Assembly (NCBI RefSeq): GCF_000010065.1
Contig: NC_006576.1
Span: 690,001 to 722,000, forward strand
Direction: 5' to 3'
Length of the DNA stretch: 32,000 nt
Origin: Synechococcus elongatus PCC 6301
GTDB taxonomy: Bacteria > Cyanobacteriota > Cyanobacteriia > Synechococcales > Synechococcaceae
Part shown: piece by piece, positions 14,116-16,319 of the stretch
Position numbering within the stretch: the stretch's first letter is position 1
How the letters are laid out: each line of letters starts with the position of its first letter
Position numbers and translations under genes: made by a program
The notes under the pieces: generated by a model
What the model saw: the letters and a program-made list of their open reading frames with translations, nothing else
What the model was told of the DNA's origin: nothing
Databases searched by the model: none

Positions 14116-14580
14116 TTACAGGGGGCTACAACTCACTCTAAATTGCAGACGATAATCTCCGGCGACAAATCCCCGAGAATTTCGGTTTTTGCCCATCACC
14201 TGCAAGCGAAGCTGACTACTACCAGAGTTAGATAGTGCAATCGTTACATCACTAGTGAGGCTAGCTTGCGACTCCGCATTATTTGCGCCGATAAGTTGGA
14301 ATTGATAACTGATATCAGCATCATTGAGATAGTCAGCTGGAAATACCATGAAGTTAGTAGAACGACTAATTTTTAGCTGAGCAGGCATCCCAGTCGAAAT
14401 GATATCGATCACTGCAATAGTTGACTGAAATGTGGCACTACGATCATCAAAACTTAAGCCCCCACTACTCGGTGAGAGAGTACAACTTGCAGGTTGAGCA
14501 GTCGCCGGAAGTACTACTTGCAAACCACCAATTATGATTAGCACTGGACAAAGCAATGCTTTATGATTGACAGTGGCCAT
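14116..14580 (-). CDS. Secreted fimbrial/SCPU-like subunit candidate (islet gene A)
   Basis: ORF 14116..14601. I prefer the ATG at 14580, giving the signal peptide MATVNHKALLCPVLIIIGGLQVVLPATA/Q. The mature N-terminus is QPASCTLSPSSGGLSFDD and the C-terminus is GFVAGDYRLQFRVSCSPL. Confidence 0.55.
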   Translation of the reverse strand: MATVNHKALLCPVLIIIGGLQVVLPATAQPASCTLSPSSGGLSFDDRSATFQSTIAVIDIISTGMPAQLKISRSTNFMVFPADYLNDADISYQFQLIGANNAESQASLTSDVTIALSNSGSSQLRLQVMGKNRNSRGFVAGDYRLQFRVSCSPL

Positions 14581-14631
14581 AAATAAAGCTGATTGTTGCA
14601 ACTTTGCTTAACTATATTACGCATATATCGA

Positions 14632-14671
14632 AGAAAGCACCTCTACCCAAAGCTAGATAGAAGTGCTTTCT
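14632..14671 (-). terminator. Hairpin between islet genes B and A (possible attenuating terminator)
   Basis: A perfect 9-bp stem pairs agaaagcac (14632-14640) with gtgctttct (14663-14671). The loop is 22 nt and the minus-strand tail TCGATATAT is only moderately U-rich. Confidence 0.4.
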
Positions 14672-14732
14672 AATATCAGTGATTCATAGTAGCTGTACTG
14701 AGTTCAGTGACCAGATCAACTTACTGGAACTT

Positions 14733-15275
14733 CTAAGGTGTCGGAGCACAAGTCAGTGAGTACTGCAGTGAGAAGTTGACTGGAGTTCCATCTGTATTTG
14801 TCCTTCCAGACAAGAAGCTACCTCCGCCTTGTGGGCCAATAGATCCCCCTAAAGTGAAGTCACTATTAGTCAAAACACCTAGAGGTAAATTAGAGAAAGC
14901 ACCAGAACTTGAATTCAGTGTAGGTGTAGTGTTACCAGTATTATCTGGAATACTTCCGGTCAGCTTATACACTGGGCTCGAATAGGAACTACCTCCACGA
15001 GTAAAGGCTGTCACAGTCCCACTTAGTAGATATAGATTATCTACAGTGGTTGTCACATCAACTGATACGTTAGAAGCCAAATCAAGCTCCCTGGTTGTTG
15101 GATTGTAGATTAAAGAGTCCGCAGGACTAATATTCGCACCCAGAATACAGGAAGGAGTAATATCTCCTTCCAAGGTAATAACGCCATCTGCTTTTGCGGG
15201 TAGAACCGCAGAAAAGGCTAACAGGCTAGCAGCGGCGGAAGCGGTGACGATTCGGGTCAAGAACTGTTTAGACAT
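14733..15275 (-). CDS. Secreted fimbrial-subunit-like protein (islet gene B)
   Basis: 180 aa. It has the signal peptide MSKQFLTRIVTASAAASLLAFSAVLPAKA/D. The mature N-terminus is DGVITLEGDITPSCILG and the C-terminus is GTPVNFSLQYSLTCAPTP. It is S/T/G-rich and its local GC is about 40%. Confidence 0.6.
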   Translation of the reverse strand: MSKQFLTRIVTASAAASLLAFSAVLPAKADGVITLEGDITPSCILGANISPADSLIYNPTTRELDLASNVSVDVTTTVDNLYLLSGTVTAFTRGGSSYSSPVYKLTGSIPDNTGNTTPTLNSSSGAFSNLPLGVLTNSDFTLGGSIGPQGGGSFLSGRTNTDGTPVNFSLQYSLTCAPTP

Positions 15276-15636
15276 GGCTCACTCTCACTCTCTTTAGGAG
15301 AACTTATTCGCCCCGGAAGTTTGAGGGAGAGCTCGGTCTTCTTTGCTCTTTCTCTTGGCTTCCTTAACTACAGTATGGAGCAAATCTAAAGACACGAATG
15401 CCGGAATGTGCAACTCGCAACATATTTTCGTATTAGCCGTTACAGTTTCGTCACTCTACGAGCTTCGGTTTTTTATCTTTCGTTCAAAATCGTCTCAAAG
15501 CCTTGTCCCAGCTAACTTTTTGTCTTTGACTGGGCTGCCAACTCTAATAATAGTTTTTCACTCTTGAGAACTCGTGATAGAGCTTTTTCAATCCTCAAAA
15601 AAAGACGATATAGAAACCTCTATTCCTTACAGGCCA

Positions 15637-15658
15637 CAAAAAAGGGGCGATCGCCCCT
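15637..15658 (-). terminator. Rho-independent terminator after islet gene C, built on a HIP1 palindrome
   Basis: The 16-nt perfect palindrome aggggcgatcgcccct spans 15643-15658. On the minus strand it is followed by TTTTTT (complement of 15638-15643). Confidence 0.65.
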
Positions 15659-15704
15659 GGACTGCCCCTCCTTCATGCTGCTGTTGTGCTCAGGCTTGGG
15701 TTCC

Positions 15705-16319
15705 CTAGGGTGTCCCTGTCGGGCCGATGATGCCCGTTGCACCACCCGCCGTTGGCGAAATGGTCACGGTCAACCGCAGCGTGTAGTTACCGGCTGTAAA
15801 CGGCTGCGACTGGGGATTCTGGGGCAACGCCTTCGACTGGATCTCCACCGTTGTTTCGCCTGAGTTGGCCAGCGGAAACTGGGTTGGAATTTGCAGATCA
15901 CTCGATGTCGAGGCGGTGTTTGCTCCTGACAGCGCATAGCGATAGAAGAAGGTTGCGGCGCCGGTAAAAGTTTCAGGTTTCGTTGTAAATGAGGCTGGCG
16001 GGGTAATCGTCACCAGCCAAGTTGAGGGGTTGTTGACATTCACCACCACCCGCGCCGGACTTCCATAGTTAAAGAAACCGCCCGTTTGGCTATCGATCGT
16101 GTAAGTCATCGTGCCATCTGTGACACTGCGGATCTCCCCTGTTGGATCGACTGTGCCACTGAATTCAACGGTTGTTGTCTGAGTCTGGGCTACAGCCGGT
16201 GGAGCCATTGCAAGCAGACTTGCTGCTACGGCAACGCCTCCGCTGGCCATGAGCCACCGCGAAGCTGGTTTGATCGATCGACGCTTCTCTGCAAAAGACA
16301 CTGCGACTACTCCCGCCAA
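15705..16319 (-). CDS. Secreted fimbrial-subunit-like protein (islet gene C); start uncertain
   Basis: 204 aa counted from the TTG at 16319 (alternatives are an internal GTG and the ATG at 16250). The signal region is KRRSIKPASRWLMASGGVAVAASLLAMAPPAVA/Q. The mature N-terminus is QTQTTTVEFSGTVDPTG and near the C-terminus lies FTAGNYTLRLTVTISP. Confidence 0.6.
   Translation of the reverse strand: MAGVVAVSFAEKRRSIKPASRWLMASGGVAVAASLLAMAPPAVAQTQTTTVEFSGTVDPTGEIRSVTDGTMTYTIDSQTGGFFNYGSPARVVVNVNNPSTWLVTITPPASFTTKPETFTGAATFFYRYALSGANTASTSSDLQIPTQFPLANSGETTVEIQSKALPQNPQSQPFTAGNYTLRLTVTISPTAGGATGIIGPTGTP

Follow-up and report, generated by a model that had tools for sequence, protein, structure and literature searches.

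A lineage-restricted five-gene cassette around the hypervariable 0905 gene of Synechococcus elongatus

Synpcc7942_0905 is the source of the most abundant protein-coding mRNA in Synechococcus elongatus PCC 7942 (PMC6091082), and its locus raises the question of what kind of protein this is and which partners it has. We analyzed the locus in a 32,000-nucleotide stretch of S. elongatus PCC 6301 (contig NC_006576.1, positions 690,001 to 722,000; "the window," whose numbering is used throughout). Here 0905 (protein B; 14733-15275) is the second of five consecutive minus-strand open reading frames (ORFs) between acnB and hesB. It is preceded by Synpcc7942_0904 (C; 15705-16250) and followed by Synpcc7942_0906 (A; 14116-14580 or 14601), Synpcc7942_0907 (D; 13641-14099) and Synpcc7942_0908 (E; 12820-13527). 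The five proteins are identical to ABB56934-ABB56938 and each has a signal-peptide-like N-terminus. As judged from sequence comparison, A, B and C are paralogues, and the cassette is exchanged whole between strains as a divergent allele. A first-pass annotation, made from the sequence alone, had read A, B and C as pilin subunits of the fimbrial, SCPU or DUF4402 type; the cassette is not a detectable member of these pilin families or of the PapD family.

Already published are the expression of 0905, the detection of its product in exoproteomes and the remark that it has no homologues. In the searchable literature we found no account of the kinship of 0904, 0905 and 0906, of the partnership with D and E, of a minimal cassette elsewhere, of a replacement island or of negative tests for chaperone-usher membership. 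The most abundant mRNA of a leading cyanobacterial model and chassis is now placed in a three-paralogue family with two dedicated partners. What were hypothetical proteins become a defined five-gene system, one hypervariable cassette that behaves like an exposed-antigen locus and not like a chaperone-usher pilus.

Kinship and secretion of A, B and C

The N- and C-terminal strings quoted in the first-pass annotation are all present in three minus-strand ORFs, 14116-14601, 14733-15275 and 15705-16319. A and C are related directly (BLASTP E-value 5e-12, 30% identity over the C-terminal 87 amino acids). B had no pairwise match to A or C, and profile-profile alignment (hhalign) with thin profiles gave P = 0.015. 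With family profiles enlarged by five B alleles and by a distant member, X, from contig L007, the A/C/X profile aligned to B at a probability of 94.7% (E-value 5.8e-8), over 138 columns from end to end and with both Cys residues aligned. The BLASTP match of A to C and the profile alignment of A/C/X to B together place the three proteins in one family, as had been proposed.

The mature proteins are 126 (A), 151 (B) and 160 (C) amino acids long; the size range given before, 130-180 amino acids, therefore holds for B and C, and A falls slightly below it. Ser, Thr, Gly and Asn make up 34-48% of the residues, in line with the richness in these residues noted earlier. Residue counts also agree with the earlier description of the Cys residues. 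Mature A and B have exactly two, one N-proximal and one four to five residues from the C-terminus (Cys14 and Cys147 in B), and C has none, with both positions replaced (by Gly and Ile). Across alleles the pair is complete in A (three alleles), B (five) and X (one) and both residues are missing in C (four). This perfect covariation argues for one disulfide pair.

B, C and X, but not A, carry an N-terminal extension of ~12 residues in which hydrophobic positions alternate, usually with a Gly in their midst. Its sequence is xITLEGDI in B (GVITLEGDI in the window), TVEFSGTV in C (within TTVEFSGTV) and VNFNVNV in X. Further family features are a Cys right after the extension, a Y-x-L-x-G core and a C-terminal G-x-Y-x-h-x-h-x-(V/L)-x-C strand, in which h is a hydrophobic residue. 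X combines the extension, as in C and B, with the Cys pair, as in A and B. Conservation within B is higher at the termini (0.44 and 0.39) than in the interior (0.20-0.32).

Published data document the expression and export of the family. In strain UTEX 2973 the transcription start site (TSS) of 0905 yields the most abundant RNA after 16S rRNA, and in darkness it accounts for 12.5% of TSS reads, with a log2 fold change of 7.3 (PMC6091082). The same study assigned 0905 a signal peptide probability of 1.0, described the gene as dispensable and detected no homologue outside the species by BLAST (PMC6091082). Transcripts and proteins of both 0905 and 0906 are strongly raised in the pilB::Tn5 and sigF1::Mu mutants (PMC11345509). 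Exoproteome tables include 0904, 0905 and 0906 in conditioned medium (PMC8092324), and all three proteins are listed in wild-type medium datasets too. A, B and C reach the medium, and the signal peptides and the exoproteome detection of all three uphold the earlier claim that they are secreted.

The chaperone-usher pilin question

Several features recommended a pilin reading. Classical chaperone-usher pilins such as FimA and PapA have a Sec signal and beta-rich subunits of ~130-160 amino acids, occur as several paralogous subunits of which one lacks the extension, and have a hypervariable major subunit. Their N-terminal h-x-h-x-G-x-h...C motif is echoed in a local, non-significant hhalign alignment; the Pap/Fim donor strand itself is h-x-h-x-G-x-h, with Gly at P4. 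Archaic (sigma) chaperone-usher and DUF4402 proteins are similar to the family in an N-terminal C-T-[VL]...L-x-[FY]-[DG] motif and in a C-terminal G-x-Y-h-x-h strand. In Synechocystis, surface subunits are encoded apart from their usher, cccS and cccP away from slr0019 (PMC4390875), which is a precedent among cyanobacteria. A, B and C might on these grounds be highly diverged pilins of the classical, archaic/SCPU or DUF4402 kind, with an usher and a PapD-like chaperone encoded elsewhere in the genome.

Profile searches lend this no support. We ran hmmscan against Pfam at E-value ≤10 with the cassette proteins, five further alleles and X, and then with all 13 aligned family members. None of the 13 members matched Fimbrial (PF00419), SCPU (PF05229) or DUF4402 (PF14352), and PapD_N was matched by no cassette protein, allele or homologue. 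The aligned members gave weak matches to generic Ig-like families only (SpaA_2, Big_9, PKD and Y_Y_Y; best E-values 0.003-0.08). NCBIfam scans of the cassette proteins were empty, and no meaningful match came from PDB sequence searches with single proteins or with profiles (of A, B, A/C, D and E and of the merged family). For direct comparison, PapD, FimA, PapA and CsuA/B queries were used and verified as full-length top PDB matches, PapD being residue-identical. The family profile aligned to FimA+PapA over the first 29 columns only ("q..i...G.v-p.sC" against "g.v.f.g.vv.a.c"; P = 0.0042, probability 8%, non-significant), and it showed no similarity to CsuA/B (P = 0.33). What survives of the pilin evidence is thus a motif-level N-terminal likeness to the classical donor strand that, at P 0.004, is not significant.

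The remaining motifs and the known partners point the same way. The C-terminal G-x-Y strand, taken in the first-pass annotation for a pilin hallmark, is a generic feature: Ig-like, PKD and Big domains end in such a strand. The disulfide predicted here would run from an N-proximal Cys to the C-terminal strand and join the first and last strands, whereas the C21-C61 disulfide of FimA joins the A and B strands. The penultimate Tyr, the usher and the two-domain chaperone of classical systems are absent, and the accessory genes D and E are found instead. In Synechocystis, CccS carries an SCPU domain, CccP a PapD_N domain and Slr0019 an Usher domain (PMC4390875), none of which occurs here. Among the five cassette proteins and the 20 other ORFs of the 32-kb window we detected neither an usher (PF00577) nor a PapD-like chaperone (PF00345 plus PF02753), as the first-pass annotation had also noted; the 20 ORFs matched housekeeping Pfam families only, for example glutamate synthase, DnaX, histidine kinase and psbA. 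D was considered as half of a PapD chaperone, for which an alignment made by eye was attractive, and the idea was rejected with hhalign P-values of 0.035 (against PapD) and 0.16 (against PapD+FimC+Caf1M).

Structure prediction suggests that the family members are all-beta, from models of low to moderate confidence. The AlphaFold2 model of B, built from five sequences, has about ten strands and no helix (predicted local distance difference test, pLDDT, 68.7; predicted template modeling score, pTM, 0.57); its residues 1-13, the extension, are modeled as coil with a pLDDT of about 54. The C model likewise has no helices (pLDDT 53.1). Foldseek searches of the PDB returned no match at E-value ≤1e-3 for either model, and what was found below that significance were generic beta-sandwiches. 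For B the best match was the archaeal bundling pilin 7ueg (rank 1, E-value 0.015, template modeling (TM) score 0.34), and further non-significant matches included TNF/ExsF/CBM jelly-rolls, TasA (8aur) and the Sulfolobus thread (7pnb), the latter two within the top 17. C matched MATH/TRAF domains (TM scores 0.35-0.4). The only chaperone-usher-related entries for B, lectin domains of F17-type adhesins, ranked 35 and 46, with a probability of about 0.2. A search of BFVD for viral folds gave nothing informative.

Since neither profile nor structural similarity to these pilins was found, an outcome that the first-pass annotation had itself named as refuting it, the assignment to a pilin family fails, and an origin of A, B and C as highly diverged chaperone-usher pilins is very improbable. 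Export or assembly by a route not yet described is a real possibility. We also compared the cassette with the cyanobacterial CT pilus, formed by the MrpC family (PMC12397347), which is similar in being a cyanobacteria-restricted, Sec-type, abundant extracellular protein with a paralogous pilin-like gene. It was rejected as a model, given its two beta-hairpins and C-terminal helix-turn-helix against the all-beta models here, and its O-GlcNAc transferase and FkbM methyltransferase neighbors are both missing from the cassette.

A divergent cassette and what it may build

D and E accompany the subunit family in all the cassettes found. D, which has a signal-like N-terminus, is a single beta-rich domain of ~115 amino acids with two Cys and a Pro-rich tail; we found no relation between D and the subunit family. 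E has a signal peptide, a 100-amino-acid domain with two Cys, a coiled coil (IELERARLRLQREKEQFEEEKALR) and a Pro-rich tail with one to three xAPPIP repeats, and it has no Pfam or PDB relative. Copies of xAPPIP(V/T) in the E tail (12820-13100) number one in contig L001, two in the window and three in L010. The D ORF is 149-152 amino acids long and conserved across the alleles read (that of L009 is cut at the contig end), with a ratio of nonsynonymous to synonymous substitution rates (dN/dS) of 0.05-0.07. In PCC 7942, D is annotated as just 70 amino acids (ABB56937). As the longer ORF is conserved and under purifying selection, the start in this 70-amino-acid annotation of 0907 is probably wrong.

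The gene order C-B-A-D-E between acnB and hesB recurs in the window, in L001 (CP033061.1, putatively strain UTEX 3055), in L004 and in L009, with at least four distinct B alleles in the S. elongatus group. L010 is a partial contig with the end of A followed by D, E and hesB. Homologue searches based on k-mers recovered alleles of the S. elongatus group only. Among 1.84 billion representative proteins, searched exhaustively by HMMER with a profile of D, the true matches were the D cluster itself and a single distant homologue, P0027 (E-value 4.9e-8); two spurious matches were repeat proteins, one eukaryotic and one with CARDB repeats. P0027 lies in a three-gene cassette, X-D'-E' (L007, 3621-4949), on a cyanobacterial contig from an SRA assembly with 41% GC, abundant HIP1 sites (GCGATCGC) and a COP23 neighbor. 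In this cassette there is an overlap of D' with the stop codon of X, and the N-terminal domains of E' and E share 50% identity. From this minimal cassette we infer that the conserved unit is a subunit together with D and E.

With the E and subunit alignments turned into degenerate patterns, 185,579 species genomes and JGI metagenomes were scanned, which gave one unrelated adhesin and no relatives; tblastn against plasmids gave no match. The adhesin is a 2863-amino-acid cadherin/VCBS-like repeat protein (L008, 3158-11749), on a contig binned as an Akkermansia metagenome-assembled genome. It has only the motif YTGxDSFxYR in common with the family and was rejected as a member; this sharing suggests a subunit core that resembles cadherin-like or Big_9-type Ig repeats. 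On the present searches the family is extremely narrow and lineage-restricted.

Comparison of the window with L001 revealed a sharply bounded island. The flanks (22239-16404 and 12891-9748) share 97.7% nucleotide identity, and between them, from 12891 to 16404 and over the whole of C-B-A-D-E, identity is 68-79% or the sequences are unalignable, as over mature B. Synonymous divergence (dS) is 0.13 for acnB and 0.013 for hesB; in the five cassette genes the proportion of synonymous differences (pS) is 0.68-0.85, which is saturated. Protein identities are 0.70 (C), 0.39 (B), 0.64 (A), 0.74 (D) and 0.83 (E). Among five alleles, mature B is 24-49% identical and its signal peptide about 71%, and the promoter and 5' untranslated region (UTR) with the signal-peptide codons are the only part of the B locus that can still be aligned (blastn, 78.6% over 15392-15228). 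B is the hugely expressed and hypervariable member of the family. Its dN/dS is 0.27-0.31, and because dS is saturated, positive selection on B cannot be claimed.

For C, D and E, the alleles of L001 are nearer to the L004 alleles than to those of the window; the L004 flanks share about 85-90% identity with the window. Despite the 97.7% identity of the L001 flanks, the history of the alleles is therefore incongruent with that of the genomes. The cassette has a GC content of 0.50, against 0.56 in the rest of the window, with A and B at 0.44-0.45. By analogy, the pattern is that of an allelic replacement island, as at exposed-antigen loci. Islands of pilin, flagellin and O-antigen genes have the same sharp edges, saturated synonymous sites, incongruent allele phylogeny and atypical composition; they differ in that the cassette proteins belong to no known antigen family.

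What the cassette makes is a matter on which we hold a tentative preference. It may be a lineage-restricted, Sec-dependent system that produces an abundant, antigenically variable extracellular or surface coat or thin fibril, which phage or grazers would put under diversifying pressure. Subunits would pass the inner membrane by Sec, gain the disulfide that joins first and last strands, and associate, in a manner like strand exchange, through the alternating-hydrophobic N-terminal extension and the C-terminal strand. B would be the bulk subunit, A, without the extension, the terminal subunit and C a minor one, with D and E as dedicated periplasmic folding or export partners in place of chaperone and usher. 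Consistent with a coat or fibril are the family homology, the Cys covariation, the extension in B, C and X and the conserved B termini, together with exoproteome detection, 0905 mRNA abundance, cassette synteny, the sharp island edges and the incongruent allele phylogeny. Donor-strand filaments are among the top Foldseek matches of B, all of them non-significant. Judged from these sequence features, polymerization by strand exchange is plausible but unproven.

Usher-free filaments of this kind are known. TasA fibers, AbpA bundling pili, Sulfolobus threads and Pyrodictium cannulae are built from beta-sandwich or jelly-roll subunits by N-terminal strand donation. Their entries 7ueg, 8aur and 7pnb are those found near the top for B, again without significance (E-values 0.015-0.09, TM scores 0.33-0.41). 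They differ from the cassette in having no sequence relationship to it, in having no outer membrane to cross and in SipW- or TapA-type partners, which are absent here. A more specific proposal would make the cassette an usher-independent pathway of a diderm cell, in which a new beta-sandwich family forms a strand-exchange fibril or sheath with D as chaperone and E as export factor or anchor, and alleles are swapped under phage or grazer pressure. We consider this proposal in its full form doubtful.

A number of observations weigh against a coat or fibril. The sigF1::Mu mutant over-expresses 0905 and 0906, yet 95% of its cells bear no pili when negatively stained and viewed by transmission electron microscopy (TEM) (PMC11345509), and any fiber must therefore be thin or short. 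A pilB strain deleted for 0905-0906 still forms biofilm (PMC11345509). The proteins were recovered from medium passed through 0.22-μm filters (PMC11345509), which is compatible with soluble proteins. The predicted signal peptide of 0904 (16190-16250) is covered by one peptide from the exoproteome, ASGGVAVAASLLAMAPPAVAQTQTTTVEFSGTVDPTGEIR (PMC8092324), so that either some C is apparently uncleaved or the identification is wrong. Moreover, D has no significant similarity to PapD-like chaperones, the weak Pfam matches point to ordinary complete Ig-like domains, and the models are weak (pLDDT 68.7 and 53.1), with all fold matches at TM scores of 0.3-0.4 and E-values above 1e-3.

An alternative is that A, B and C do not polymerize at all. 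They could be soluble or loosely bound, complete Ig-like sandwiches, such as decoys, lectin-like adhesins or binding proteins, that are released in bulk. D and E would then be co-evolving inhibitors, anchors or folding factors, and the hypervariability an escape from phage or predators. The TEM data, in which over-expressing mutants show no extra filaments, and the recovery from filtered conditioned medium make this almost as likely as a coat or fibril. In favor of non-polymerizing exoproteins are also the exclusively generic Ig-like Pfam hints (SpaA_2, Big_9, PKD, Y_Y_Y), the TRAF/TNF/CBM-type sandwiches among the best Foldseek matches and the lack of a biofilm phenotype on deletion. Such proteins leave unexplained why the paralogues differ in the N-terminal extension, why the B termini are conserved, why expression is so asymmetric between major and minor members, and why there is a local likeness to the pilin donor strand.

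The signal-spanning C peptide fits a third explanation, in which the proteins are periplasmic or outer-membrane-associated envelope components, structural or tethering, that enter the medium through vesicles or leakage raised in type IV pilus mutants. These envelope-perturbed mutants are indeed the ones with the strongest enrichment in the medium, and the coiled coil and Pro-rich spacer of E are reminiscent of periplasm-spanning proteins. Hypervariability and island-like allele replacement are, however, typical of exposed molecules, A, B and C also occur in wild-type medium datasets, and B is dispensable. We regard an envelope role as improbable. If a coat or fibril is the true product, the cassette would represent a new route for extracellular structures across the cyanobacterial outer membrane, and how susceptible cells are to phage and grazers would likely depend on it.

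Gene starts and transcription signals

The longest ORF of C extends to 16319. Its start is most likely M24 of this ORF (16250), which gives the annotated 181-amino-acid protein ABB56934; this annotated form and a proteomic peptide beginning ASGGV both support the choice. A probably starts at 14580. A published TSS is located 785 bp upstream of A (PMC6091082), and with the 14580 start it falls ~90 nt upstream of the start codon of B, which places the inferred TSS near 15365, within the B promoter and 5' UTR (15276-15392, minus strand).

As read from the sequence, B has its own promoter and a terminator stands after C. This terminator-like hairpin with a T-run (15643-15658, minus strand) holds the sole HIP1 site within the cassette body. 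HIP1 sites number 91 in the 32-kb window; the interval 12820-16404 has 2, against 11.2 expected (P = 0.001), and the L001 cassette (5833-9486) has 4, against 11.1 expected.

A begins about 130 nt after B, and D begins 16 nt after the A stop codon. The B-A spacer of 134 nt is predicted to fold strongly (minimum free energy -41.5 kcal/mol, z-score -3.7), and a hairpin of ~18 bp without a clear U-tract lies directly 3' of the B stop codon (14632-14671, minus strand). It is likely to be a terminator or an mRNA-stabilizing 3' structure for the very abundant 0905 mRNA. An Rfam scan of 12000-17000 gave no match. The promoter, signal peptide and 3' hairpin of 0905 are candidate parts for biotechnology strains that secrete proteins at very high levels.

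The cassette is bordered by acnB (16483-19107, plus strand) on one side and by the HesB/IscA gene hesB (12316-12672) on the other. Just past acnB, at 19160-20128 (plus strand), is a gene for an RTX/HemolysinCabind protein; going by gene order, it is presumably Synpcc7942_0902. 0902 is listed as enriched in a mutant exoproteome, and in L001 and L004 the orthologue of the RTX protein lies beyond the divergence island, in conserved flanking sequence.

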